Positions 8,491 through 21,892 of a DNA stretch of 64,000 nt are shown piece by piece. The translations under genes and the position numbers were made by a program. Source of the DNA: Dehalococcoidia bacterium (GTDB lineage Bacteria; Chloroflexota; Dehalococcoidia; SM23-28-2; RBG-16-64-32); the NCBI GenBank assembly GCA_040877915.1, contig JBBDNA010000009.1, positions 15,003 through 79,002 on the forward strand, in the 5' to 3' direction. The notes under the pieces were generated by a model. It searched no databases, had not been told where the DNA came from, and worked only from the letters and a program-made list of their open reading frames with translations. Each line of letters begins with the position of its first letter. The stretch's first letter is position 1.

Positions 8491-11205
8491 TCATGCCGTC
8501 TGCACGAGTACCCGTGCGTCGACGACGACGCAGCCATGGCCAGGGGCAAGCGCCTTGACCGGGTTCAAGTCCATCTCGCGGATCTCCGGGACCGCTTCCA
8601 CCAGGGCGGACACTCGTAGCAACATCTCCTCGATGGCGGCGATGTCGCCGGGGTCGGCGCCGCGCCAGCCCTCGAGCAGGGGGTAGGCCTTCACCGATCG
8701 CACCATCTCGCGGGCGTCGACGTCGGTCAGGGGCTGGATCCGGAACGCGAGATCCTGAAGCAGCTCCACGAACGTGCCGCCCAGCCCGAACATCATCAGC
8801 GGCCCGAAGGCGGGGTCCTGGGTCACACCGATGATGACCTCTACTCCGTCTGGAACCATCTGCTGGACGATGACGCCTTCCATTTCCGCGCGCCTGTCCA
8901 GCGCCGCGAGCCGAGACTCTATCGCGCGGAAGGCTTCGCGCACCCCCTTCTGCGACTTCAGGTCCAGGTGCACGCCCCCGATGTCCGACTTGTGGGTGAT
9001 CGTTGAAGACGCGAGCTTCACGGCCGCGGGGAACCCCACGCGCTTCGCCGCCTCCACCGCCGCTTGCGCTGTCGTCGCGAACTCCGCTCGCGCTGACCGT
9101 ATCCCGAACGCCGCAAGCAGCTCGTTGCAGTCGCCGGGAGAGAGCCAGGCCGGCTGCCCGCCGGCGGCCGCCAGCGCCCGGGCGATGACGGCCCTGCCCG
9201 TCTCGCGGTCCAGCCGATCGAGAACCGGGAGCGCTCCCTGGGGCCGCTTCAGCCAGGCCGTGTACTCGCTCATCTTCGCCAGGGCCATGGCCGCGCCTTC
9301 CGGAAACGCGAACGAGGGCACCGTTGTCTCCCCGCCCGAAAGCTCCGCCGGGGCGCCCTGCGCGGTCATGAAGCAGGCCAGCAGCGGCTTCCGCCTGCCC
9401 TGCTCTCGCGCCGCCCGGTGAATCGCCTCCGCCACGGGCCGCGGCTGCGTCACCAGCGGCGGCGTGAAGATCACGATGACCGCGTCAGTCGTGCCGTCGC
9501 TCAACAGTATGCGGAGGGCCCGCGCGTAGTCCTCTGCCGTCGCCGCCGCCAGCATGTCGACGGGATTCGTCAAGGCGGCCGTCGGCGGCAGGAACGCCCG
9601 CAGAGCGCTCACGGTGTCTTCGGGAAGGGGCGGCACCTCCAGGCCGTTACTCTCGCAGGTGTCCGCCGCGAGGATCGCCGGTCCGCCGGAGTTCGTGAGT
9701 ATGGCGACTCTGCTGCCCGCCGGGGGAGGCTGGTGCGAAAGGAGGCCTGCCACGTCGAACAGCTGCTCCAGCGTGTCGGTGCGGATTACGCCGGCCTGCC
9801 TGAACAGCGCCTCCGCGGCCACGTCGGCGGTGGCCAGGGCGCCCGTGTGCGAGGCCGCGGCCCGCGACCCCGCCGCCGTTCGGCCGCTCTTCACGGCGAC
9901 GATCGGCTTCCTCGCCGTTATCTGCCGTGCCAGGCGCCCAAACTTTCGCGGATTCCCGAAGGACTCCAGGTAGAGCAGGATGACGTCCGTGCCCTCGTCT
10001 TCGGCCCAGTACTGGATCAGGTCGTTGGAGGAGACGTCGGCCCTGTTCCCGACGCTGGCGAAGGTCGAGAGCCCCAGATTGAGCTTCCCTGCGTAGTCCA
10101 GCAGCGCCAGGCCCAGAGCGCCGCTGTGTGAGGCCAGGGCTACGTTTCCCCGGGGCGGGAATTGCGGCGAGAAGGTAGCGTTTAGAGATACCTCCGGGTC
10201 AGTGTTCAGCACCCCCATGCAGTTCGGCCCAACGAGGCGCATACCGTAGCTGCGGGCCTTGGCCAGCAGCGCCCTCTCCCTCTCCGCACCGTCCTCTCCG
10301 GTCTCCCGGAAGCCAGCCGAGATCACAACCGCTCCCTTCACCCCCTTGCGCGCGCACTGCTCCGCAACCTCCAGCACCTTCTCCGCCGGGACGACGATGA
10401 TAGCCAGCTCCACTTCGCCCGGCACGTCAGCGATCGAGGCATAGGCCTTCACTCCCCGCACGGTCTCGGCGGAGGGGTTCACGGGGTAGACGATCCCTTT
10501 GTAACCGTGCTCGACGATGTTATTGAAGATCTCCGCGCCTATCTTCCCCCTCCGCCGCGAGGCGCCGATCACAGCCACGCTCCTGGGGCGGAAAAACGTC
10601 GCGATGGACGCCACCTCCGCGATGCGCTCGCGCTCCTCCGCCCTTCGCTCCGCCTCCGCCGTCGGTTCAATCGGGAAGGCCACGTGGTAGGTCCCGAACT
10701 CGAACTTCGTCTCCAGCGGGAAGCCGCTGTCCCGGAACACGCTCATCATCGCCCGGTTCTCGGCCAGGACGTCGCCTTCGAAGGTCTCGATCCCGTTCTC
10801 GCGGGCGACGACGGCCAGGCTCTCCAGCAACTGCGTCGCGATGCCGCGGCCCTGGTGGCTATCCTCTACCACGAACGCTATTCCCGCCCGCTTCCGGTCC
10901 TCCAGGCGCACGTACCGGGCTACCGCTATGATCTTCTCGTCCACGGCCTCCCCCAGCGTGGCCACCAGGGCGTACGTGTTCGTGTAGTCGACGTCGGTGT
11001 ACTCTCGTGCTTCCTCAGGCCCGAAGCGGGACACCATATGGTGGAAGCGCAGGTAGACGGAGCGCGGGCTGAGCCGCGTGAACCCTGCCACGAGGGCGTC
11101 CACGTCCTCCGGCTTGATGGGGCGCAGATGGACCGTGGAGCCGTCCTTGAGTAGGACGTCCGTCTCGTGTTTGGCGGTACGGACAGGCGTACGGGGTTCG
11201 TCCAT
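8491..11205 (-). CDS. GNAT acetyltransferase fused to an ADP-forming acyl-CoA synthetase-like module (Pat-type protein acetyltransferase / acetyl-CoA synthetase, GNAT N-terminal)
   Basis: This is only the last 904 codons of the 2337-aa track ORF. It contains a GNAT block (IAFVVEDSHQGRGIATQLLESL), a CoA-binding block (RSVAVIGASRRRGKIG), a ligase-CoA block with SHTGALA (His retained) and a C-terminal ATP-grasp. The start is ATG 11205 (MDEPRTPV). Confidence 0.85.
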   Translation of the reverse strand: MDEPRTPVRTAKHETDVLLKDGSTVHLRPIKPEDVDALVAGFTRLSPRSVYLRFHHMVSRFGPEEAREYTDVDYTNTYALVATLGEAVDEKIIAVARYVRLEDRKRAGIAFVVEDSHQGRGIATQLLESLAVVARENGIETFEGDVLAENRAMMSVFRDSGFPLETKFEFGTYHVAFPIEPTAEAERRAEERERIAEVASIATFFRPRSVAVIGASRRRGKIGAEIFNNIVEHGYKGIVYPVNPSAETVRGVKAYASIADVPGEVELAIIVVPAEKVLEVAEQCARKGVKGAVVISAGFRETGEDGAERERALLAKARSYGMRLVGPNCMGVLNTDPEVSLNATFSPQFPPRGNVALASHSGALGLALLDYAGKLNLGLSTFASVGNRADVSSNDLIQYWAEDEGTDVILLYLESFGNPRKFGRLARQITARKPIVAVKSGRTAAGSRAAASHTGALATADVAAEALFRQAGVIRTDTLEQLFDVAGLLSHQPPPAGSRVAILTNSGGPAILAADTCESNGLEVPPLPEDTVSALRAFLPPTAALTNPVDMLAAATAEDYARALRILLSDGTTDAVIVIFTPPLVTQPRPVAEAIHRAAREQGRRKPLLACFMTAQGAPAELSGGETTVPSFAFPEGAAMALAKMSEYTAWLKRPQGALPVLDRLDRETGRAVIARALAAAGGQPAWLSPGDCNELLAAFGIRSARAEFATTAQAAVEAAKRVGFPAAVKLASSTITHKSDIGGVHLDLKSQKGVREAFRAIESRLAALDRRAEMEGVIVQQMVPDGVEVIIGVTQDPAFGPLMMFGLGGTFVELLQDLAFRIQPLTDVDAREMVRSVKAYPLLEGWRGADPGDIAAIEEMLLRVSALVEAVPEIREMDLNPVKALAPGHGCVVVDARVLVQTA

Positions 11206-11280
11206 CGCGCTTCTGGGACAGTTTACCAAGCAGCAGGAGCGGGGAGCGAGGCTGGACCGGTGTCGCCGGACACCGCCACG

Positions 11281-11310
11281 TTGACCGCGCCGAATGGCGA
11301 GGCTTAGAAT
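11281..11310 (+). promoter_or_regulatory. Candidate sigma70-type promoter of the sulfatase-FGE operon
   Basis: TTGACC (11281-86), an 18-nt spacer, then TAGAAT (11305-10), 66 nt upstream of ATG 11377. The perfect palindrome GGTGTC-GCCG-GACACC lies immediately upstream. Confidence 0.4.
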
Positions 11311-11376
11311 CGTCCTGCGTTCGAAATGCCCCGCCCCTCGGTTTCGGGCGCAATTTCCCCGCCTGGAGGAGCAGCC

Positions 11377-13677
11377 ATGCCACAGCAGTTCAAAGGCGTG
11401 ATCGGGCGCTACGCCAGCGAGTCGACGCCCTGGTGGCCGGAGCCCGTTCGGGCCCGCGAGGGCTCGCCCAACATCGTCTATATCGTCCTGGACGACGTGG
11501 GTTACGGCCAGCTCAGCTGCTACGGCGGCCTCTGCGAGACCCCGAACCTCGACCGGCTGGCCAGCAACGGCATCCGCTACAGCAACTTCCACACCACCGC
11601 TCTCTGCTCGCCCACTCGCGCCTGCCTGCTCACCGGACGCAACCACCACTCCAACGGGATGGCCAGCATCGTGGAGGTAGCCTCCGGCTTCCCCGGCTAC
11701 ACGGCCGAGATCCCCTTCGAGAACGGATTCCTCCCCGAGATGCTGACGCCTCTCGGCTACGCCGCCTACGCGGTCGGCAAGTGGCACCTGACGCCGCACC
11801 CGGAGATGAACATGGCGGCCCGCAAGGACCGCTGGCCGCTGGGCCGCGGCTTCGAACGCTATTACGGCTTCATGGGCGGCGATACGAACCACTGGGAGCC
11901 GGAGCTGGTGTACGACAACCACCAGATCGAGCCGCCGCGGACCCCCGAGGACGGCTATCACCTGACCGAGGACCTGGCCGGCAAGGCGATGGAGTTCGTC
12001 ACCGACCTGAAGAACGTGGCGCCGGACAAGCCCTTCTTCCTCTACTTCTGCACCGGCGCCGGCCACGCCCCCCACCACGCCCCCCGCGAGTGGATCGAGA
12101 AGTACCGGGGCAAGTTCGATATGGGTTGGGACCGCGCGCGAGAGATGGTCTTCGAGCGCCAGAAAGAGATGGGCGTCCTGCCGCCGGACACGGAGCTGAC
12201 ACTGCGGCCCCACTGGATTCAGCCCTGGGACGAGCTGTCCGGCGACGAGAAGCGCCTGTACTCCCGCATGATGGAGGTGTACGCCGGGTTCATGTCGCAC
12301 ACCGACCACCACATCGGGCGGCTGATCGACTTCCTGGAGTCCATCGGCGAGCTGGACAACACTCTCATCGTCGCCATTTCCGACAACGGCGCCAGCGCCG
12401 AGGGCGGCCCCCACGGCTCGCTGAACGAGGCGATGTTCTTCAACCGCGTGCCGGAAACCGTGGAGGACAACCTGGCGCGCATGGACGAGCTGGGCAGTCC
12501 CTCCACGTTCAACCACTACCCGTTCGGATGGGCCTGGGCCGGCAACACGCCTTTCCAGCGCTGGAAGCGCGAGGTCCACGAGGGCGGCGTGGCCGACCCC
12601 TGCATCGTCCACTGGCCGAAGGGGATCGAGGCCCGCGGCGAGGTCCGGCAGCAATACGTCCACGCCATCGACATCACGCCGACGGTCCTGGACATCCTCG
12701 GCGTCGAACCGCCGCAGCAGATCAGGGGCGTGTCGCAATCGCCGCTGCACGGGGCCAGCTTCGCCGGGACGCTCTCGGACCCCGCCGCTTCCAGCGCCCG
12801 CCGGACCCAGTACTACGAGATGCTGGGCAACCGCGCCATCTACCACCAGGGCTGGAAGGCCGTCACCTACCACGGCACCGAGGGCATGATCTACGACGGC
12901 GTCACCGATCCGTACAAGAGCTTCGAGGATGATGAGTGGGAGCTCTACCACGTGGACCAGGACTTCTCCGAGGCGAACGACCTGGCTCGCGAGCACCCGG
13001 AGAAGCTGCGCGAGCTGCAGGAGCTGTGGTGGATCGAGGCGGCCAGATACAACGTCCTGCCGATCAACGCCCGCACGCTGGGGCGTCTGGCCGGCCGGCC
13101 GCACATCGGCGGAAAGCGGCATCGCTTCGTCTACTACGCCGGCGGCGCGGCGATCGAGATGGCGGCCGCTGCCAACACCAAGAACCGCCACCATTCCATC
13201 ACCGCGGAGGTGGTGATCCCGGAGGCCGGCGCGGAGGGCATCCTGCTGGCCACCGGCGGCCGCTTCGGAGGCTTCGCCCTGTACGTCAAGGACGGCAGGC
13301 TCTGCTACGCCTACAACTTCCTCGGCAGCAAGACATTCCACGTCGTCTCCGGCGACCCGATACCGGCCGGCCCCCACACCCTGGCCCTCTCCTTCCAGAA
13401 GACCGGGCCCGGAATGCTGGGCGCCGGCGGCATCGCGCGGCTCTACCTGGACGGCCAGCTCAGCGGCGAAGGCGAGGTCTCCCGCACGATACCGTTCTTC
13501 GCCGGGCTCGCCGAGCGCCTTCACTGCGGCCGCCAGGAGGGCTCCCCCGTTTGCGAGCACTACGAGCCGCCGTTCGAGTTCACCGGCACCCTGAAACGCG
13601 TCGTCGTCGACGTCAGCGGCCACGAACCGCCGCGCGACCTGGAGCAGGAGGCCGAGATCGGCCTGGCCCGCCAGTAG
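11377..13677 (+). CDS. arylsulfatase (formylglycine-dependent) with C-terminal LamG/ConA-like domain
   Basis: N-terminal IVLDDVGYGQLSCYGG and the FGly motif CSPTRACLLTGR (CxPxR). A GGAGGA RBS precedes ATG 11377. Confidence 0.9.
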   Translation: MPQQFKGVIGRYASESTPWWPEPVRAREGSPNIVYIVLDDVGYGQLSCYGGLCETPNLDRLASNGIRYSNFHTTALCSPTRACLLTGRNHHSNGMASIVEVASGFPGYTAEIPFENGFLPEMLTPLGYAAYAVGKWHLTPHPEMNMAARKDRWPLGRGFERYYGFMGGDTNHWEPELVYDNHQIEPPRTPEDGYHLTEDLAGKAMEFVTDLKNVAPDKPFFLYFCTGAGHAPHHAPREWIEKYRGKFDMGWDRAREMVFERQKEMGVLPPDTELTLRPHWIQPWDELSGDEKRLYSRMMEVYAGFMSHTDHHIGRLIDFLESIGELDNTLIVAISDNGASAEGGPHGSLNEAMFFNRVPETVEDNLARMDELGSPSTFNHYPFGWAWAGNTPFQRWKREVHEGGVADPCIVHWPKGIEARGEVRQQYVHAIDITPTVLDILGVEPPQQIRGVSQSPLHGASFAGTLSDPAASSARRTQYYEMLGNRAIYHQGWKAVTYHGTEGMIYDGVTDPYKSFEDDEWELYHVDQDFSEANDLAREHPEKLRELQELWWIEAARYNVLPINARTLGRLAGRPHIGGKRHRFVYYAGGAAIEMAAAANTKNRHHSITAEVVIPEAGAEGILLATGGRFGGFALYVKDGRLCYAYNFLGSKTFHVVSGDPIPAGPHTLALSFQKTGPGMLGAGGIARLYLDGQLSGEGEVSRTIPFFAGLAERLHCGRQEGSPVCEHYEPPFEFTGTLKRVVVDVSGHEPPRDLEQEAEIGLARQ

Positions 13678-13686
13678 CGGCGCGCC

Positions 13687-14637
13687 ATGGATGAGCAGGC
13701 CGAACCGGAGGCGCCCTGCTGCGCCCCCTCCGGCGGCACCCGCAGCGAGGCGGCGCCGGCCACGCCAGGTCGCGGCGCCGGCTCGCCTCACGTGGACATG
13801 GTCCGCCTGCCCGGCGGCGAGTTCCTCATGGGGAACGACGACGGCCTCGCCTACCCCTCGGACGGCGAGGCGCCGGTCCACGCGGTTATAGTCGCGCCGT
13901 TCTGGATCGACCCAACGGCGGTGACCAACGCCCGCTTCTCGGCCTTCGTCGAGGCGACCGGCTACCAGACCGGCGCCGAGCGATTGGGCTGGACCTTCGT
14001 CTTCGCCGGGCTGCTCCCGGACGACTTTCCGGACACGCGCGGCGTGGCGGCGGCGCCCTGGTGGCGTCAGGTGCACGCCGCCGACTGGCGTCACCCGGAA
14101 GGGCCGCAATCGCTCGTCGCGGAGCGCATGGACCATCCCGTAGTGCACGTCTCCTGGCGCGACGCGTCCGCTTACTGCGCCTGGGCGGGCCTGCGCCTGC
14201 CCAGCGAGGCCGAGTGGGAGTACGCGGCGCGGGGCGGCCTGGTCCAGAAGCGCTACCCCTGGGGAGACGAGCTCTCGCCCGGCGGCCGGCACATGTGCAA
14301 CGTCTGGCAGGGGGAGTTCCCCCGCCAGAACACCCAGGACGACGGCTACTACGGCACAGCGCCGGCGCGCTCCTTCGATCCGAACGGGTTCGGGCTGTAC
14401 AACGTCAGCGGCAACGCCTGGGAGTGGTGCGCCGACTGGTTCAGCCCGACGTACTATCGAGAGTCGCCGGCCGGCGATCCTCGCGGCCCGTCTGGCGGTA
14501 CGGCCCGCGTGATCCGCGGCGGCTCCTACCTCTGCCACGACTCCTACTGCTTCCGTTACAGGGTCGCCGCTCGCAGCGCCAACACGCCGGACAGCTCCAC
14601 CGGCAACACTGGCTTCCGCTGCGCCCGCGACGCGTGA
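13687..14637 (+). CDS. formylglycine-generating enzyme (SUMF1/FGE family)
   Basis: Blocks HPVVHVSWRDASAYCAWAG, LPSEAEWEYAARGG and RVIRGGSYLCHDSYCFRYRVAARS, which carries the catalytic Cys pair. It lies directly downstream of the sulfatase. Confidence 0.9.
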   Translation: MDEQAEPEAPCCAPSGGTRSEAAPATPGRGAGSPHVDMVRLPGGEFLMGNDDGLAYPSDGEAPVHAVIVAPFWIDPTAVTNARFSAFVEATGYQTGAERLGWTFVFAGLLPDDFPDTRGVAAAPWWRQVHAADWRHPEGPQSLVAERMDHPVVHVSWRDASAYCAWAGLRLPSEAEWEYAARGGLVQKRYPWGDELSPGGRHMCNVWQGEFPRQNTQDDGYYGTAPARSFDPNGFGLYNVSGNAWEWCADWFSPTYYRESPAGDPRGPSGGTARVIRGGSYLCHDSYCFRYRVAARSANTPDSSTGNTGFRCARDA

Positions 14638-14755
14638 CCGCGACGATTTCCGGCGAACCGGCCTACGCGCTGGCGGATGCGGTACGGCTGCTCCATAATT
14701 AGTGGCCGAGATCAACGTTGCATCTAGCTGGACACGCATCCGGGAGGTATACGGC

Positions 14756-15574
14756 ATGGCGAAGCGGATTCTGGTTACGGGGGCGGCAACGGGCTTCGGG
14801 AGGGCGACGGCGCTGGCGCTGGCGAAGCGCGGGCACACAGTGATCGCGGGCGTACAGATCGCGCCGCAGATGACAGAGCTGATGAAGGCTGCCGCTGAGG
14901 CCGCTGTGCAGCTGAAAATCCAGGTGCTGGACATCACGGACGAGGGGGACCGGCAGGCGGCGTTGACCAACGAGGTAGACGTGCTGATCAACAACGCCGG
15001 CGTGATGGAGACGGGGCCGGTGGCCGAGATCCCGATGGAGAGGGTGCGCCGCAACTTCGAGACGAACGTGTTCGGGACGCTGGCGCTCACGCAGGCCTTC
15101 GCGCGGCAGATGGTGAAGCGAGGGTCCGGGAAGATCGTGATGGTGACGTCCATGGGCGGCCTGGTCACGGTGCCGTTCGCGGGCGTGTACTGCGCGACCA
15201 AGCACGCGCTGGAGGCACTGGCGGAAGGGTTGAAGGCGGAGCTTGCCGGTACCGGCGTGGAAGTGTGCACGGCGAACCCGGGCGTGTACGGCACGGGCTT
15301 CAACGATCGGGGAGCGGAAACGATGATGCGGTGGTTCGACATGGGGAATTCACTGACGCGGCCTGAGGTGCTCGCCGCGGCGGCGACGGGGCTGGCCAAC
15401 CAGCTCGACCCGCAGTCGATGGTCGATGCCTTCGTCCGGATCGCCGAGGAGGACGGGTCGAAGTTCCGGAACGTCGTGCCGGACGGGACGGCGGAGTGGA
15501 TCAAGGAGATCCAGGCGAAGACGTGGGCCGCCGGTAAGGACGATGCGATCTGGAGCTCGCCGCCGGCGGGTTAA
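14756..15574 (+). CDS. SDR family oxidoreductase
   Basis: TGAATGFGRATA (TGxxxGxG), NNAG and YCATK (YxxxK). A GGGAGG RBS precedes ATG 14756. Confidence 0.85.
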   Translation: MAKRILVTGAATGFGRATALALAKRGHTVIAGVQIAPQMTELMKAAAEAAVQLKIQVLDITDEGDRQAALTNEVDVLINNAGVMETGPVAEIPMERVRRNFETNVFGTLALTQAFARQMVKRGSGKIVMVTSMGGLVTVPFAGVYCATKHALEALAEGLKAELAGTGVEVCTANPGVYGTGFNDRGAETMMRWFDMGNSLTRPEVLAAAATGLANQLDPQSMVDAFVRIAEEDGSKFRNVVPDGTAEWIKEIQAKTWAAGKDDAIWSSPPAG

Positions 15575-15620: not shown

Positions 15621-17009
15621 CTACGGCGTGCGGCCGTAGCGCTGGACGGCTTCGATGACGCGCTGGTTCGTGGCCGGCGAGTTCGAGAGGTTGTAGTCGT
15701 CCATGAACGACCAGCCGAAGAGCCCCAGGTCCGTCATCTCCTCCAGGTAGCTGTCGGTCAGCATCGCCAGCGTGTCGGCGTCGAACGTGGCCTGGGAGGA
15801 GTTGTCGGGTTTGTAGTGGGCCAGGAGGACCGGGCCGTACTGCCCCAGTATCTGGGTCATCATCCGCACCTCCTCCACGTTGCCGGAGCTCTCCATGGCC
15901 TGGAAGCTCTGGAAGTCCATCGCGGCCATGACGTCGGCGAAGTGGGAGAAGAGGGACATCCCGCCGCCGACCGAGGGGTCGTCCCAGCGCCACTGCCAGC
16001 CTCCCCAGCCGATGCTTACCTGGGAGTTGGGCGCGTTCTCGTGGAAGATATCGCGGATCTGGAGCATACGCTGCTTCAGGATCGTGTGGTAGGAGGACGC
16101 TCCCGACCACTGGTTGCCGGTGCAGGGGTAAGTCTGGAACTCCGTGAACAAGGTCACGTACAACGGCGGGTCGGACGCGGTACCGGCCCAGATCTGGGCC
16201 AGCCGCTCCATATCGTCGAGGATGCCGCTGCTGATCGGGTACTGCCGGCCGCAGGGCGAGCCGCTGCCGGGGCCGTGGGCGTAGATGATCAGGTGGAGCG
16301 CGTAGCCCTCCTCGTAGGCCGAGGGGATGAGGCCGTTCTCCCAGTACGTCATCCAGTCCAGGTCGCTGGCGCTGCTGTACCAGCTCGACAGCATCCACGT
16401 CGGCGATTGGTTCACGAGGTCTGTGTCGAGGGCGCCCTGGGCGGCGGGACCCATACCGAAAAGCAGCTGCGGCGTCGTTGAGGCTATCGGCGTTGGCGTA
16501 GGCGTCGGCGCCGGAGTCGGTGCTGGAGGCGGCGTCGGCGTCGGGGTCGGTGTTGGCGGAGGCGGAGGTGGGGGCGGGGGCTGGCAGACGGCGCCGTAGC
16601 GTGGCCTCACCAGGACGAGGTCGGCGATGCTAATCGCTCCGTCCGTGGAGAGATCGAAGCGACGGTCGTAGGCGCTGTCGCCGTCCCTCGATCCGTAGGC
16701 CGAGCGGAACCGGGCGACGTCCTGGACCGTCACCCTCGTGTCGTCGTTAACATCGGGCGGCCAAGCGTCGATTGGCTCGTCGTTGAGGCCTGTCGTGTCG
16801 TTGCAGGCGCGGTCCGGGTCGGTGCCGATGAACGTCTCGGTGGCGTCGCTGAAGCCGTCGCCATCGGCGTCCGCCGCTGCGGAGGCGTGGCTCCGCGCGC
16901 CGAGGACGAGCAGCAGCGCGAGGACGGCGAGCGGCAGCAACGGTAGCACGAGCTGACTGCGCGCCGAACCGGAGGTTCGGGCCGGGTTGGGGCTGCTGGA
17001 TACGGCCAT
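15621..17009 (-). CDS. secreted protein: signal peptide, Ca-binding dockerin/thrombospondin-3-like repeats, Pro/Thr linker, C-terminal glycoside-hydrolase-like (TIM-barrel-like) domain
   Basis: N-terminal hydrophobic signal. Repeats DADGDGFSDATE and DVNDDTRVTVQDVARF / STDGAISIADLVLV. Linker PPPPPPPPPTPTPTPTPPPAPTPAPTPTPTP. The C-terminal ~300 aa contains TLFTEFQTY-type blocks. The function is not identified. Confidence 0.6.
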   Translation of the reverse strand: MAVSSSPNPARTSGSARSQLVLPLLPLAVLALLLVLGARSHASAAADADGDGFSDATETFIGTDPDRACNDTTGLNDEPIDAWPPDVNDDTRVTVQDVARFRSAYGSRDGDSAYDRRFDLSTDGAISIADLVLVRPRYGAVCQPPPPPPPPPTPTPTPTPPPAPTPAPTPTPTPIASTTPQLLFGMGPAAQGALDTDLVNQSPTWMLSSWYSSASDLDWMTYWENGLIPSAYEEGYALHLIIYAHGPGSGSPCGRQYPISSGILDDMERLAQIWAGTASDPPLYVTLFTEFQTYPCTGNQWSGASSYHTILKQRMLQIRDIFHENAPNSQVSIGWGGWQWRWDDPSVGGGMSLFSHFADVMAAMDFQSFQAMESSGNVEEVRMMTQILGQYGPVLLAHYKPDNSSQATFDADTLAMLTDSYLEEMTDLGLFGWSFMDDYNLSNSPATNQRVIEAVQRYGRTP

Positions 17010-17160
17010 TGGGAAGGACGCGGCCTCCTCTCTTCTGCCAGAGATAGAGACGCCTCGTTCTCCCCGCGGTTACGTGGCCGCTGCCGTCGGAAACGCGATG
17101 GCGTAGAATGGGGCCGCTATCGAGACGCGTATCCGGTACGAGCAGGAAGTGAAGAACAAA

Positions 17161-18294
17161 ATGAGCCCACATATCGTCATCTGCGGCGCCGGCTTCGGTG
17201 GTCTGGAGCTCACCGCGCGGCTCTCGGCGGCGTTCGGGCGTGAAATCGACATAACACTGATCGACAAGAACGAAGCATTCGTCTTCGGCTTCTCGAAGTT
17301 CGAGATCATGTTCGGGCGGCAGCGGCGCGAAGATGTGAGCTCGTACTACACCGGGATCGCGAAGGCGGGCGTCGCGTTCAGGCAGGAGCTCATCACGTCG
17401 ATCGATCCTGTCGCCCGCCGGGTCGTGACGGACAAAGGCGCTTACGACGCGGACATACTCGTCGTCGCCCTCGGCGCGGACTACGACGTCAGCGCCACGC
17501 CCGGTTTCGTGGAAGGCGGCCAGGAGTTCTATTCGGTCGACGGCGCGGTCCGATCGAGTGGGGTGCTCCCGAACGTGACTTCGGGAAACGTCATCGTCGC
17601 CGTCGTCAGCGAGCCGTTCAAATGCCCGCCCGCGCCGTGCGAAGCGGCGATGTTGCTGGATGAGTACTTCTCGGGCCGCGGCGTGCGGTCCAGCATCGAT
17701 ATCACCGTCGTGTCGCCGTGGGCTATCCCCATCCCGGCGTCGGGCCCCGCCTCGGAGGCCATCCTCGATCGCTTCCGTGAACGAAACCTGCGCTGGATGC
17801 CGAACCAGGGCGTATCGTCTATCGATCCCGCGACGAAGACTGTGCACCTGCGCGATGGAGGCGCCCTGCCCTACGAGCTCTTTCTCGGCATCCCGGTCCA
17901 TCGCGTTCCCGCCGTGGTCGAAGCATCAGGTCTCGCCGTCGACGGCTGGATCCCGGTCGACAAGGCGAACCTCTCGACGCGGTTCCCGGACGTCTATGCG
18001 ATCGGCGATGTGACCAGCGCGCCGGTGCCCAAGGCCGGCATCTTCGCCGAGAGCGCCGCCCGCGCCGTGGCGGAGCACCTGATCGTGCGTCTGCGCGAAG
18101 CCGGCACAGCGAAGCCGTACGACGGCGCCGGGTCGTGCTTTATCGAGTTTGGAGATCGCCGAGTCGGGCGCGTCGACGTCGATTTTCTGACCGGACCCTC
18201 GGTAGTGGCGCCGTTCACCGAGGCCTCGCTGCAGGGAGCGGAGGAGAAGAGGGAGTTTGCGGCGTCGCGGCGGAGGCTCTGGTTCGAGAGCTGA
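17161..18294 (+). CDS. FAD-dependent pyridine nucleotide-disulfide oxidoreductase (sulfide:quinone oxidoreductase / NDH-2-like)
   Basis: HIVICGAGFGGLE (GxGxxG), a second nucleotide-binding region and AIGDV. The start is ATG 17161 (AGGAAG 12 nt upstream) or GTG 17149. Confidence 0.8.
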   Translation: MSPHIVICGAGFGGLELTARLSAAFGREIDITLIDKNEAFVFGFSKFEIMFGRQRREDVSSYYTGIAKAGVAFRQELITSIDPVARRVVTDKGAYDADILVVALGADYDVSATPGFVEGGQEFYSVDGAVRSSGVLPNVTSGNVIVAVVSEPFKCPPAPCEAAMLLDEYFSGRGVRSSIDITVVSPWAIPIPASGPASEAILDRFRERNLRWMPNQGVSSIDPATKTVHLRDGGALPYELFLGIPVHRVPAVVEASGLAVDGWIPVDKANLSTRFPDVYAIGDVTSAPVPKAGIFAESAARAVAEHLIVRLREAGTAKPYDGAGSCFIEFGDRRVGRVDVDFLTGPSVVAPFTEASLQGAEEKREFAASRRRLWFES

Positions 18295-18296
18295 GC

Positions 18297-18713
18297 ACAT
18301 TGCACCTCGAAGGCACGTCCTTCGACTACGACGACAACGGCAACCAGATTGAGCGGGGAACGGACACCTTCGAGTACGACCACGAGAACCGGCTGGTGGA
18401 GACTGTAAGCGGTACAATGATGTGGATGGCGTGTGGTGCGCAGCGTGCCTCCAATCCGATAGCTGGCGGAATATGCGTGTCCGCAGCCGGGTGGTATCTG
18501 GCAGCCACGGGCGTGAAGTATTTCCTGGCGGACAGCGCGTGTGAAAAGAAGGTTGTTCTGGGAACGGCGGTAATAGGCCTAGCGCCGCCAATCAAATACG
18601 TAGGGAGCGTCATCGCTGGATCCAGCAGCGGCTTCGAGGCACTCGGTTGTCCCACGACGGCCCACGCTTGGGGCGCAAATGCCGGCACAGCTACTACTGG
18701 CTCCAAGGAATAG
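18297..18713 (+). pseudogene. YD-repeat (RHS-family) fragment with no start codon, fused to a short Gly/Ala/Cys-rich hydrophobic tail
   Basis: It begins 3 nt after the SQR-like stop and reads LHLEGTSFDYDDNGNQIERGTDTFEYDHENRLVETVSG (two YD repeats). An unrelated lower-GC tail, MWMACGAQRASNPIAGGICVSAAGWYL..., follows. No upstream RHS body is present. Confidence 0.5.
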
Positions 18714-18716
18714 TTA

Positions 18717-19313
18717 GTGAGCAGCGACTCCGATTTGATTGGACACGCCTCATCGGAGTTCCGCGTTGTTCCAAACAACCCGGAAACGAGATTTTTGAGT
18801 ATTGCCTACTCGATCCCATTCGTCGGCATGTTGATCTTCGTCCTGGTTTCGTTCATCGCGGGCGTGGTGGGGCAGCAAGACGCTCTGATCATGGCCCTGG
18901 TTCTCGTGGTAGTGGGAGGCGCCGTAATCTTGAACATACAGCGGAATGGTCGTGGTTCAGCGGTCATGGCTTCTTCCGGGCTGGTGGTCAAAACACGCGG
19001 GTCTACAAATACCTACAGCTGGGCCGACGTCGCAGATGTCGTCCTCACGTCCTTTGCCGAGCGCGGATCTTGGGGTCGCCTGGTGAAGCGTCTTACCCTT
19101 TGGCCCGAACGAGAGCGGTTTGTGGAACTCAGATTGAAGCGCTCGCTCCGGCAAGGACTTTTGCCCGGACGGTATGGAACGAGGATTAAGGGAATACCGT
19201 TAATCGGCGGCGACCGTATCGCTCTTTACGTCGACGATCCGGCATCCTTCGTTCGGAGCGCGAAGACGCATCTTGGCGCGTCGGGAGGTGGCACCAGCCT
19301 AAGCAGCGATTAG
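18717..19313 (+). CDS. hypothetical 2-TM membrane protein with PH-like C-terminal region (candidate immunity protein)
   Basis: 198-aa ORF of visibly lower GC than its flanks, with two N-terminal TM helices followed by a soluble domain. It sits between the two RHS fragments. Confidence 0.5.
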   Translation: MSSDSDLIGHASSEFRVVPNNPETRFLSIAYSIPFVGMLIFVLVSFIAGVVGQQDALIMALVLVVVGGAVILNIQRNGRGSAVMASSGLVVKTRGSTNTYSWADVADVVLTSFAERGSWGRLVKRLTLWPERERFVELRLKRSLRQGLLPGRYGTRIKGIPLIGGDRIALYVDDPASFVRSAKTHLGASGGGTSLSSD

Positions 19314-19353
19314 AGATCCGGCGCCTCCTAGCACACCGCCGCGAGCACCTACA

Positions 19354-19806
19354 CGGCTGGCGATCCCCGGCGACAGCTACTGGCTGTTCACGGGCGAACA
19401 GTCGGATAGCGACGAGGGGCCGTACTACCTCCGGGCTCGCTACTACGACCCTGATACTGGACGACTCCTTAGCAAGGACCCGCTAAGAGGGAAGGCGTGC
19501 ACGCCACAGTCGCTCAATCGATATGCCTACGTGGAAAACAACCCCACGATTCACGTTGACCCCAGGGGTCTGCTTTGGTTGGGCGGCCGAGCTTCCAAGC
19601 AAGGCATGCGTGGCCGAATTCCTTGTGGGCACCGCCCTTGTATGCGGCTTGTGTTCAGAGGGACTCCAGTCTGGAGGAATCATATTCGCATTGCCCGCCT
19701 GCAATGCGTGCCTGACGCTCGTAGCGATCTTCATCCATGCTATCCTAGACTGTATCTGACGATGAACCGATCTCCATACGTCGAACGGCCCAAGCATTGC
19801 CGTTGA
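19354..19806 (+). pseudogene. orphan RHS core C-terminal end (PxxxxDPxGL cleavage motif) plus short tip, no start codon
   Basis: Frame 1 reads IPGDSYWLFTGEQSDSDEGPYYLRARYYDPDTGRLLSKDPL...SLNRYAYVENNPTIHVDPRGL, the conserved end of RHS/YD shells. The frame is open only from 19303 and has no ATG or GTG before the motif. Confidence 0.65.
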
Positions 19807-20064
19807 AGCTGACTCCCGGCAGATGGTACTACTGGGCAGCGCTGGCGCTTGTGGCCCTGATGTGTATCTGGGGGATGCTCATATCGTTTAGAGCAGGGCG
19901 GCGTACTCGGGCTGATCCTTGGGATATCGCTCATACCGGCGCTCGGCTTGATAATCGCGAACGCGATCCTGTGGTTCACTGTCCGTAAGGAGGCCGATGT
20001 CGTTCTGCGCAGGGTCTGGCGAGCGCTGGTGTCTCGCTTGCCCAAGCGAGACGGCGATTCCTGA
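19797..20064 (+). pseudogene. small 2-3 TM protein readable only across a frameshift (candidate decayed immunity gene)
   Basis: MPLKLTPGRWYYWAALALVALMCIWGMLISF is in one frame. GGVLGLILGISLIPALGLIIANAILWFTVRKEADVVLRRVWRALVSRLPKRDGDS* is in another and ends at 20064. Confidence 0.3.
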
Positions 20065-20343
20065 CTTCGGGACGAGCGAAGACGAACCGAAATTCGCTCA
20101 GGGTCATAGAGTTAGGCCGGTCTGAGCCCATCCTATTTTCGAGCGCAGATGCGACGGTTGGCCGCGCTTGCCGTCAACGCAGGTCGCCGGACGCTGTGAA
20201 CATATAGTTCGTGCGGCGCATCTGGTTCGCGTGCTTCAAGTGCGCGCCGCGTGACGGCGCGGAAACGATGCGCGGATGGGCCGTGTTAGCCTACCCCTTG
20301 CTCGGCGCGAGTTTGTGGCTCTACGGTGGGTGCTTAGGACGAC

Positions 20344-20574
20344 TTGCCCGACGGCTGGCTCAAACGGTCGAACGGCGATGACCAACTGACCCATCTTGAG
20401 GGCACGTCCTTCGACTACGACGACGTGGGCAACCAGACCGACCGCGGCAGCGACACCTACACCTACGACGCCGTCGGCGTTGGCCTGGGGGACTGCCTTG
20501 TTTGCGTCGTGCAGGGGTCAGCCGCGCGGCACTCTGCAAGTGCGCGATACAGCACTGACACTAAGATGGGATAG
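20344..20574 (+). pseudogene. second YD-repeat (RHS-family) fragment
   Basis: It reads ...QLTHLEGTSFDYDDVGNQTDRGSDTYTYDAVG. About 78 nt are ~78 percent identical to 18303-18380, including a 24-nt perfect core (20401-20424 = 18312-18335). Confidence 0.45.
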
Positions 20575-20647
20575 CGTGCCCGCACGGCTGCCACGCGCTT
20601 CTTGGTGATCGGGAGTCTGTTCCCGACAATCGGTTTAGGTCGCCCCT

Positions 20648-21892
20648 ATGCTCCCTTCGACTTCGCTCAGGACAGGCCCTTCGACTTCGCTCAGGACAGG
20701 CCCTTCGACTTCGCTCAGGACAGGCATCGGCTGCGTTCACGTCCCACGCTTCGCCGTTGAGGTCGAGCGCCGGCGCCGCCCCGAACTCGCGTCGCGCCTG
20801 ATCCTCATCGGCGAGACCAGCGTGTTCGATTGCTCCCTGGGCGCCCAGGCCTCCGGCGTCCGGCCCGGCATGCGCGTATCGGAGGCGCTGGGCCTGTGCG
20901 GCAAGGCTGTGCTGTTCCCGCCCGATCTCCCCCGCTACCGCCGCCGTTTCGAAGATGTGCTGGACTTCCTGAACGGCCACAGTCCCCAGGTGGAAGGGGC
21001 AGCCCTGGGCACGGCCTACCTGTCGCTCGAAGGGCTGCCCGAAGAACCTTGCCGCCTCGGCGAGCGGGTCGTCGAGGCGCTGTATAAGCAGTTCGGCCTG
21101 CGCGGTTCCTTCGGCGCCGCCGGCGGCAAGTTCACCGCCCGCGTCCTGGCCGAAACCGCCCGCGCCGGCCTCGTCAAGCTCGTCCCGCCCGGCGAGGAGG
21201 CGGCGTTCCTCGCGCCCCTGCCCGTCGACCACCTGCCGGCCAGCGATTCGATGCTCTGGCGGCTGCGGATGCTGGGCCTGGAGACGATGGGCGACGTGGC
21301 GGCGCTGCCGGAGGGCGCGTTCCAGCAGCAGTTCGGGCCGGAGGGCAGGCGTTGCCGGCGGCTGGCGCAGGGCATCGACGACGAGCCGCTGCTGCCGCGG
21401 GCGCAGGAGGAGACGGTCGTACGACGGTTGCAGCTGCCGGCCCCGGCGGTGACACTGGACGCCGTCCTCGCCGGCGTCGAGCGGTTGGTCCATGCCGCCT
21501 ACGGCGACCCCCTTCGTGGCGGGCGCTGGGTGCGCAAGGCGGTGGTGAGGGCAGCGCTGTACGGTGGTGGGGCGTGGGAGCTGCCCGTCCCCTTCCGTGA
21601 GGCGCTGGCCGACCCCGGAGACGCCTGGTTCGCCGTGAGGTGCGCCGTGGAACGGCGTCCGCCGGAGCGCCCGCTGGAGGAGCTGGAGGTGGAGCTGGTG
21701 GGGCTGAGCGGGGAGTCCGGTCGCCAGGCTTCCATGTTCGATGGCCGGGCGAAGCTGAAGGCCCAGGTGACGGAAGCCGTGCGTCAGCTACAAGCCCAGC
21801 ACGGCGAAGTCGCGCTGGGGAGAGCGGTAGAGGTGGAGCCGTGGTCGCGCATACCGGAGCGCAGGATGGCTCTCGTCGACTACGGCCCCTGA
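20648..21892 (+). CDS. imuB: ImuB-like Y-family DNA polymerase homologue (mutasome component)
   Basis: After the repeat-encoded N-terminus the sequence IGCVHVPRFAVEVERRRRPEL... resembles ImuB/DinB-like N-termini, and the UmuC-like region follows. It lies upstream of dnaE2. Confidence 0.7.
   Translation: MLPSTSLRTGPSTSLRTGPSTSLRTGIGCVHVPRFAVEVERRRRPELASRLILIGETSVFDCSLGAQASGVRPGMRVSEALGLCGKAVLFPPDLPRYRRRFEDVLDFLNGHSPQVEGAALGTAYLSLEGLPEEPCRLGERVVEALYKQFGLRGSFGAAGGKFTARVLAETARAGLVKLVPPGEEAAFLAPLPVDHLPASDSMLWRLRMLGLETMGDVAALPEGAFQQQFGPEGRRCRRLAQGIDDEPLLPRAQEETVVRRLQLPAPAVTLDAVLAGVERLVHAAYGDPLRGGRWVRKAVVRAALYGGGAWELPVPFREALADPGDAWFAVRCAVERRPPERPLEELEVELVGLSGESGRQASMFDGRAKLKAQVTEAVRQLQAQHGEVALGRAVEVEPWSRIPERRMALVDYGP
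20653..20724 (+). repeat. perfect tandem repeat, 3 x 24 bp (CCCTTCGACTTCGCTCAGGACAGG), inside the 5' end of imuB
   Basis: The three units are identical on direct reading and are translated as PSTSLRTG x3. Confidence 0.95.

Follow-up and report, generated by a model that had tools for sequence, protein, structure and literature searches.

A probable decayed array of orphan rhs toxin-tip and immunity cassettes between an SQR-like gene and imuB in a Dehalococcoidia bacterium

Orphan rhs-CT/rhsI modules have been described in Enterobacteria (PMC3150448; PMC3967940), with examples in Dickeya dadantii 3937 (rhsC), Yersinia pseudotuberculosis, and Salmonella Typhimurium LT2 (Poole et al. 2011; Koskiniemi et al. 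2014). Two further systems are of interest for comparison, namely Tse5 (PA2684) of Pseudomonas aeruginosa, an Rhs effector whose C-terminal tip forms pores and depolarises membranes and which is paired with the membrane immunity protein Tsi5 (PMC9637101, PMC10684867), and the orphan Rhs immunity of Serratia, an example of an acquired interbacterial defence island (PMC10539506). Here we describe a 2.4-kb stretch of lower GC content located at positions 18295–20725, between an SQR-like gene and imuB, in a 64,000-nt window (the whole stretch of DNA analysed, C9:15003-79002) of a 2.14-Mb, 21-contig, 71.5%-complete genome bin of a Dehalococcoidia bacterium with a GC content of ~68%. The stretch comprises the remains of two or three RHS competition-toxin cassettes and is very probably a decayed array of orphan rhs C-terminal tip/immunity cassettes, in which one gene alone is still intact, a probable immunity gene at 18717–19313. 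Everything else in the island is probably inert debris, and the feature is of a known kind, that of the orphan rhs-CT/rhsI modules, in an advanced state of decay.

The layout of an orphan module, composed of a start-less 3' rhs fragment, a tip, and a small immunity open reading frame (ORF), occurs twice in the island, in cassette 1 (fragment A and gene B) and in cassette 2 (fragment C, tip 2, and gene D). As in the enterobacterial modules, the fragments are start-less 3' pieces of rhs that keep some of the core up to DPxGL, they carry a variable tip followed by a small downstream immunity gene, and their GC content lies below that of the host; in both cases the tips are related to those of longer RHS proteins and some copies bear stops or frame changes. 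A preliminary description of this DNA had proposed the layout of displaced rhs-CT/immunity cassettes, and this proposal was borne out by profile matches, by intact homologous cassettes at other loci (contigs L028, L118, and L120 bear unbroken equivalents of cassette 1), and by the lack of any RHS shell in the assembly. Every piece that it listed was recovered at the same position by ORF and sequence reading.

Regarding the extent of the island, the stop codon of the SQR-like gene (NF049943, E 9e-55) lies at 18292–18294, and similarity to its closest orthologue (89% aa) stops two codons short of it. On the right edge, imuB homology picks up again at 20726, so that non-native DNA occupies the entire gap between the two genes. 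The earlier limits of 18295–20600 were therefore right at the start and too short at the end, where the island also includes a threefold 24-nt repeat fused to imuB. The GC content is 0.56–0.63 over 18.35–20.15 kb and 0.66–0.75 in both flanks, in agreement with the drop previously seen between about 18.4 and 20.3 kb. The island DNA was probably acquired horizontally, since its GC content of 56–63% equals the 57–62% of homologous cassettes elsewhere, against 68% in this genome. No empty site was shown, as the SQR orthologues of five relatives (53–89% identity) do not adjoin imuB, nor do the imuB orthologues adjoin SQR.

Cassette 1 begins with the YD-repeat fragment A (18295–18404, plus strand), which corresponds to positions ~10–43 of a 206-residue C-terminal RHS consensus (A2) and adjoins the SQR-like stop codon, with no RHS sequence upstream of it. 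It had been described as a start-less fragment directly after that stop codon, and it indeed starts 9 nt past it (HLEGTSFDYDD... from 18303), in a frame that reads HLEGTSFDYDDNGNQIERGTDTFEYDHENRLVETVSG and continues to a stop at 18711–18713. An exhaustive phmmer search matched fragment A to many RHS proteins (best E 3.5e-12), including full-length ones of 1681–2566 aa, in which the match sits ~350 residues from the C-terminus. In the same genome, it is 94% identical at the amino acid level to a fragment at C12:245054-244953.

The boundary between fragment A and the sequence that follows was resolved to the base by a three-way DNA comparison, which located a deletion junction at 18400–18407 (plus strand) with the 8-nt microhomology AGACTGTA. 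Left of the junction, up to ...GGTGGAGACTGTA, the window tracks the C12a-type RHS sequence present at C12:245 kb in the same genome. Right of it, from AGACTGTAAGCGG..., the window tracks the tip sequence of a toxin, here called toxA, on contig L028; the two source sequences have only the 8 nt of the junction in common. Identity between the window and L028/L117 amounts to 82.7% at the nucleotide level, over 18397–19253 only. The junction thus reads as the signature of a microhomology-mediated deletion. Originally, cassette 1 would have comprised an RHS shell end of ~200 residues, DPxGL, the tip toxin toxA, and the immunity gene B. The microhomology would then have mediated an illegitimate deletion of ~650 nt, corresponding to ~165 residues of the shell end and core and ~50 residues of the toxin. 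The autoproteolysis motif and the initial third of toxA would thereby have been lost and gene B spared, and the product would be a YD stub joined to the last 102 toxin residues.

The toxA remnant (18405–18713, plus strand) comprises the C-terminal 102 of ~150 residues; neither DPxGL nor the N-terminal ~50 residues of the tip are left. This stretch had been taken for an unrelated Gly/Ala/Cys-rich tail, a reading that we correct here: it is the C-terminal two-thirds of a conserved RHS tip toxin, and fragment A with the two-transmembrane (2-TM) gene downstream forms a cassette of its own. The ORF of contig L028 whose end lies 4 nt ahead of the homologue of gene B reads ...YYLRARYYDPATGRFLGRDP...NNPANYVDPYGL FGWSDIKK...MQTVSGTMMWMACGAQSASNPIAGGICLTAIGWY...TGSKE*, in which an RHS core end is followed by DPxGL and then by a tip of ~150 residues, the last 102 of which are ~79% identical to the window "tail". 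Intact toxA homologues follow DPxGL in L028, L111, L118, L119/L120, and L124; L120 bears a classical array, in which a 560-aa start-less RHS fragment, the tip, and gene B are followed by three more orphan core fragments. The toxin did not match any Pfam family. Gly, Ala, Ser, Thr, Val, and Cys account for 60% of its composition, with four to five conserved Cys and one strongly hydrophobic segment (IAGGIC..A.GWY.AATGV), and its AlphaFold2 (AF2) model is all-helical and of low confidence (pLDDT 51), too poor for a fold search. Because it is predicted to be helical, is rich in these six residues, and has a hydrophobic core segment, and because its immunity protein is membrane-anchored, our best guess is that toxA is a membrane-active toxin of the pore-forming type, similar to Tse5.

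Gene B (18717–19313, plus strand) encodes 198 aa, with a predicted transmembrane hairpin at residues 22–77 and PH-like beta-sandwich, and is the probable cognate immunity protein of toxA. The 2-TM gene reported at this position is thus present, and it is intact and conserved, contrary to the statement that every piece of the island was truncated or frameshifted. We identified 14 homologues (50–76% identity), all on short metagenome contigs; their alignment contains 37 invariant columns, and the pairwise dN/dS between B and its homologues (~0.30) equals that between intact pairs elsewhere. A scan of 185,579 species genomes returned no member of the family. In most contexts, toxA or a toxA remnant is situated directly upstream of B: a toxA ending in …GSKE and a stop adjoins B in the window, in L028/L029, in L111–L113, and in the JGI contigs L117–L122 and L124, and in the loci other than the window B starts 4–20 nt past the toxin. 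A shortened tip precedes an intact B in L110 and L114–L116, which come from unrelated samples, and in L125–L127 B lies behind a short RHS fragment with no tip detected. Because the linkage of the two genes is conserved, B is assigned as the predicted immunity gene of toxA. A Shine-Dalgarno-like AAGGA, a good match, is located 8–12 nt ahead of its GTG start. The AF2 model of B (pLDDT 77, pTM 0.67) shows the transmembrane hairpin and a beta-sandwich capped by a C-terminal helix; in Foldseek, the 40 best PDB matches were all PH/PTB domains, although weak (E of at least 0.014, TM-score 0.28–0.33), and the Pfam matches remained under their cut-offs (DUF6611, 22.1 of 27 bits; bPH_10, 10.1 of 27 bits). 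At present, gene B would act as an orphan that provides immunity to RHS toxins of the toxA type when neighbouring cells fire them. In two contigs, members of the B family are located among other genes: in L026, the gene overlaps the end of a metallophosphoesterase gene by 4 nt, and in L027, its neighbours are an MTHFR-like gene on one side and a thioredoxin-domain gene on the other. The B-family genes of these two contigs may represent orphan immunity genes that settled in housekeeping operons.

Of the RHS core, cassette 2 keeps only the last ~65 residues with DPRGL, and these are followed by a hydrophobic tip of 61 aa and by a small 2-TM gene. The RHS-associated core end C (19372–19572, plus strand; consensus ~147–206) has no start codon, reads YYLRARYYDPDTGRLLSKDP...NNPTIHVDPRGL, and ends in the PxxxxDPxGL autoproteolysis motif in the form DPRGL. 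As expected from its first description as a start-less core end with this motif, it matched TIGR03696 with 66.5 bits (cut-off 32.5, E 2.3e-18), over model positions 16–76 of 76 only. Of the profile searches suggested at that time, this one was positive, while that with PF05593 remained under the 22-bit cut-off (17.6 bits, E 0.005, on fragment A). The core remnants after B begin at the identical consensus point, W-L-[FY]-TGEQ, in the window and in L117/L028, which makes it a conserved cassette boundary. Tip 2 (19571–19759, plus strand) has 61–62 aa, is Cys-rich (7 Cys) and strongly hydrophobic, and lies in the +1 frame relative to the core. A plot of GC content at third codon positions (GC3) by frame revealed frame switches at ~19560 and ~19870, and the +1 frame after the core reads FGWAAELPSKAC..., matching DPxGL-FG[WF], a conserved junction of L028, L124, and P0023. 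These two observations indicate that tip 2 was formerly in frame and underwent a one-base frame change within 19570–19575. To read gene D (19797–20064, plus strand), a small 2-TM ORF, a frame change near 19880–19900 must be crossed; the small transmembrane ORF that had been noticed across a frameshift is thus present, with a matching GC3 switch. Since each has a frame change, tip 2 and gene D are considered pseudogenes. Neither showed homologues in a word-based search of 5.8 billion proteins (made for tip 2 with 58 of its 62 residues) or in tblastn searches of all fetched loci. Judging from its position, gene D is presumed to be the immunity gene of tip 2.

All that would be left of a third cassette is a stub of 33 residues, the YD-repeat fragment E (20377–20475, plus strand; consensus ~2–34), which was detected only through its similarity to fragment A and to P0022/P0023. 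It is contained in an ORF at 20344–20574, the remainder of which, onward to 20574, is unrelated sequence. The 24-mer GGCACGTCCTTCGACTACGACGAC shared by both YD fragments, as had been reported, is present in exactly two perfect copies (18312–18335 and 20401–20424) against none expected in shuffled sequences, and it sits within a 78-nt direct repeat of 78% identity. The repeat is not due to chance; the exact 24-mer had no match in JGI metagenomes. Between cassettes 2 and 3, a spacer at 20065–20376 (no strand assigned) has no recognisable coding sequence in six-frame reading, contains a GAAC-N5-GTTC palindrome at 20198–20210, and gave no Rfam or tRNA match. Scans of the whole island likewise returned no tRNA, integrase, Rfam, or PADLOC match, and those for promoters and terminators were empty or uninformative.

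At its right end, the island carries three perfect 24-nt tandem repeats (20653–20725, plus strand) fused in frame to imuB and read from an ATG at 20648. The imuB orthologues align to the window gene only from residue ~25–27, and nucleotide similarity starts at 20725–20726. In six relatives, the orthologues begin with M[LR]IACVH..., and five of the six show a promoter of the form TTGACA ... GAAC-N4-GTTC, with a LexA-box-like element, ~40 nt upstream; that of G053 is similar, with a box that departs from GAAC-N4-GTTC. Because native homology begins only at 20726, the window imuB apparently lacks the usual start codon and the LexA-box (SOS) promoter. The loss of this promoter next to RHS debris is of possible interest for studies of mutagenic repair in this group.

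When considering the rest of the genome, neither a long RHS beta-cocoon shell, with more than 1000 aa of YD repeats and an N-terminal secretion/plug region, nor a full-length rhs gene was found in the window, as previously noted, or in the assembled 2.14 Mb, the search having been extended genome-wide by tblastn with the full-length proteins P0040 and P0048 and by PF05593/TIGR03696 scans. The RHS pieces of the assembly map only to the last ~400 RHS residues and occur at four loci. The first of the other three, C12:245126-243386 (minus strand; L004), contains two RHS fragments and three small transmembrane ORFs. One fragment is the YD piece 94% identical to fragment A; in the other, a deletion inside the fragment, between YD motifs, has brought ...LEGTSFDCD right up to GLGSVADLTDD..., and the fragment finishes in the 3' end of an immunity-like gene. 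At C6:273375-272836 (minus strand), an RHS stub (LYYISQDHLGG) is joined to a DUF6973 tip (Pfam E 7e-12) and followed by a lipoprotein-like ORF. A repeat of ~75 nt (…CCGACCAGTAGCGCTTGCCGAGG…GGGCTTGACTGCCGGGGAGGCCGAGG…) occurs right after the stops of immunity-like genes at C12:243500-243426, C12:244279-244206, and C6:272384-272318. It is not found in the window, and could represent either a REP-like element or a flank conserved among cassettes; integron-like attC sites were considered on its account and set aside. The remaining locus, C3:141178-142821 (L001), bears an apparently intact orphan composed of a core, DPTGL, and a tip of ~160 aa without a Pfam match, followed by a multi-transmembrane ORF (142157–142531) and a core fragment (~142600–142820); the orphan starts within 15 nt of a tRNA-Arg(TCT) gene (C3:141097-141173). 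The end of fragment A (18400–18407) and the start of the C3 orphan (C3:141178-141189) lie within three codons of the same RHS consensus point (…VETV | VDSVTSTS…), and a short CTGTA is present at both, which may be a coincidence or a weak hotspot. A reciprocal exchange between the two, suggested by these breakpoints, was rejected, as solid homology at C3 begins ~11 nt further on and is preceded by the tRNA-Arg gene, not by the missing half of toxA.

Several points weigh against the interpretation of the locus as a decayed orphan array, or against the roles given to its parts. The assembly, in which no full-length rhs gene was found, is 71.5% complete, so that the organism may still have one, and without such a gene the history of displacement by a newer tip is not directly demonstrable. 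No toxin tip was detected upstream of B in L026, L027, L123, and also L128. The toxA profile gave no significant match against PDB sequences, the best being carnocyclin A (E 0.2). The dN/dS of the toxA remnant (0.2–0.37) is not relaxed and is no higher than that between intact pairs, which fits a recent deletion and also residual function. Finally, since tip 2 and gene D have no homologues, their putative toxin and immunity roles are based on position and hydrophobicity.

The incompleteness of the genome leaves room for a working store of tips, in which the pieces would serve a full-length rhs gene in the unassembled 28% and be swapped by homologous recombination at the YD/core region. Recombination-driven expression of orphans is documented in Salmonella (PMC3967940), orphans lie behind full-length genes in L037 and L032, and the 5' boundary …DQLT.LEG common to four fragments of this genome, among them fragment E, C12-a, and C12-b, could serve as a homology arm. 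In the databases, the RHS C-terminal region has its best relatives in Dehalococcoidia/Chloroflexota metagenome-assembled genomes (MAGs), where tandem orphan arrays are common. Within the same GTDB family, 17 of 43 genomes contain RHS core matches, and 14 of the ~50 matches lie in open frames of at least 880 aa (880–2560 aa), which would suit such a store; the others lie in frames of ~600 aa or less. The near-complete relatives G011 (97%) and G008 (91%), in contrast, carry core matches in short frames only, G011 having five of them in tandem on one contig without a long frame. As this survey shows mostly short-frame matches, debris without a full-length gene is a normal state in the group. Moreover, DPxGL and a third of the toxin are gone from cassette 1, the frame changes twice in cassette 2, and cassette 3 is reduced to 33 residues, so that no piece could give a working toxin by simple recombination, and the debris is spread over four loci, not placed behind one gene. 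We therefore regard a live store as improbable, and favour a decayed array, which would have built up as new tips recombined onto an rhs gene and pushed out older ones.

A bolder explanation takes fragment A and gene B as a surviving toxin–antitoxin (TA)-like pair, in which the 137-aa ORF starting at TTG 18300, with the whole hydrophobic core of toxA, would still be expressed and B would neutralise its product from within. A public gene call (P0016, 137 aa) does begin at this TTG, the unrelaxed dN/dS of the remnant and the good Shine-Dalgarno-like match of B would fit, and in Salmonella, an orphan Rhs module reportedly acts as a type II TA system (PMC7043789). The TTG, nevertheless, lies 6 nt past the SQR stop and is preceded by no more than a weak GAGAG, the promoter scan gave no promoter-like site, a third of the toxin is gone, and a recent deletion explains the dN/dS equally well. 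We consider this pair very unlikely. Its furthest version, a long shot to the same degree, would have A and B alive as an RHS-derived TA or addiction module in a genome otherwise without an RHS weapon, with the same insertion having removed the LexA-box promoter and the start of imuB; if true, the insertion would uncouple the error-prone polymerase cassette from the SOS response or silence it.

Two contigs of the independent per-run Logan assembly (run SRR27977662) equal the window at 100% identity and without gaps over 16583–18350 and 18368–20302, reproducing the SQR/YD junction, the right side of the YD/toxin junction, and both frame changes; because the two assemblies are identical there, the SQR/YD junction and the frame changes are not artefacts of the MAG assembler. 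That the fragments and frame changes are assembly or sequencing errors, the true locus holding one intact long RHS ORF (as the preliminary description had allowed for) or none, is hardly credible in spite of the metagenomic source of the bin, the frequent breaks and mis-joins of assemblies at RHS repeats, and the Logan contig ends in or near the repeated YD stretch (18350/18368; 20302), since besides this second assembly the order of the pieces (consensus 10–43, toxin C-terminus, immunity gene, 147–206, tip, transmembrane gene, 2–34) is not mendable by indels and the layout of a truncated toxin with an intact B recurs in the unrelated samples mentioned above. Outside the island, an open frame of 2337 aa at 8491–15504 (minus strand) appears gene-like only in its C-terminal part (acyl-CoA synthetase/GNAT-like); its N-terminal extension overlaps a plus-strand SDR gene and is probably an open-frame artefact of high GC content.

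As one more example of polymorphic-toxin cassette decay, the locus carries little general weight. What is new is an unnamed toxA/B toxin–immunity family, the survival of the immunity gene alone, the deletion junction at base level, and the collateral loss of the native 5' end of imuB. The unannotated RHS tip toxin family and the membrane/PH-like immunity family, so far only metagenomic and mostly on Chloroflexota-like contigs, could both be given family models. The locus also offers a clean base-level example of a cassette apparently destroyed by a microhomology deletion that spared the immunity gene, which is consistent with immunity genes persisting longer than their toxins. When annotating Dehalococcoidia MAGs, start-less RHS fragments scattered beside housekeeping genes are to be expected.

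When compared to the known systems, the enterobacterial orphan modules are situated directly behind a full-length rhs gene, whereas in the window an SQR-like flavoprotein gene lies upstream and no rhs is present in the 71% of the genome assembled. In further contrast, the debris here is found at four loci beside housekeeping genes and a tRNA, one cassette appears to have lost DPxGL through an internal microhomology deletion, and the bacterium, a Dehalococcoidia-type member of the Chloroflexota, has no known link to a type VI secretion system. Like the orphan immunity islands of Serratia, the locus bears an intact immunity gene without a working cognate toxin, a situation that recurs in L110, L114–L116, and L026/L027; unlike the multi-immunity island of Serratia, it contains a single putative immunity gene. 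Tse5 may be the closest functional analogue of toxA/B and of tip 2/D, although no sequence similarity between them was detected, no direct comparison having been made: both Tse5/Tsi5 and toxA/B combine a small, hydrophobic, Gly/Ala-rich helical tip behind the autoproteolysis motif with a membrane-anchored immunity protein, while toxA differs by its four to five conserved Cys and B by the addition of a predicted PH-like soluble domain.

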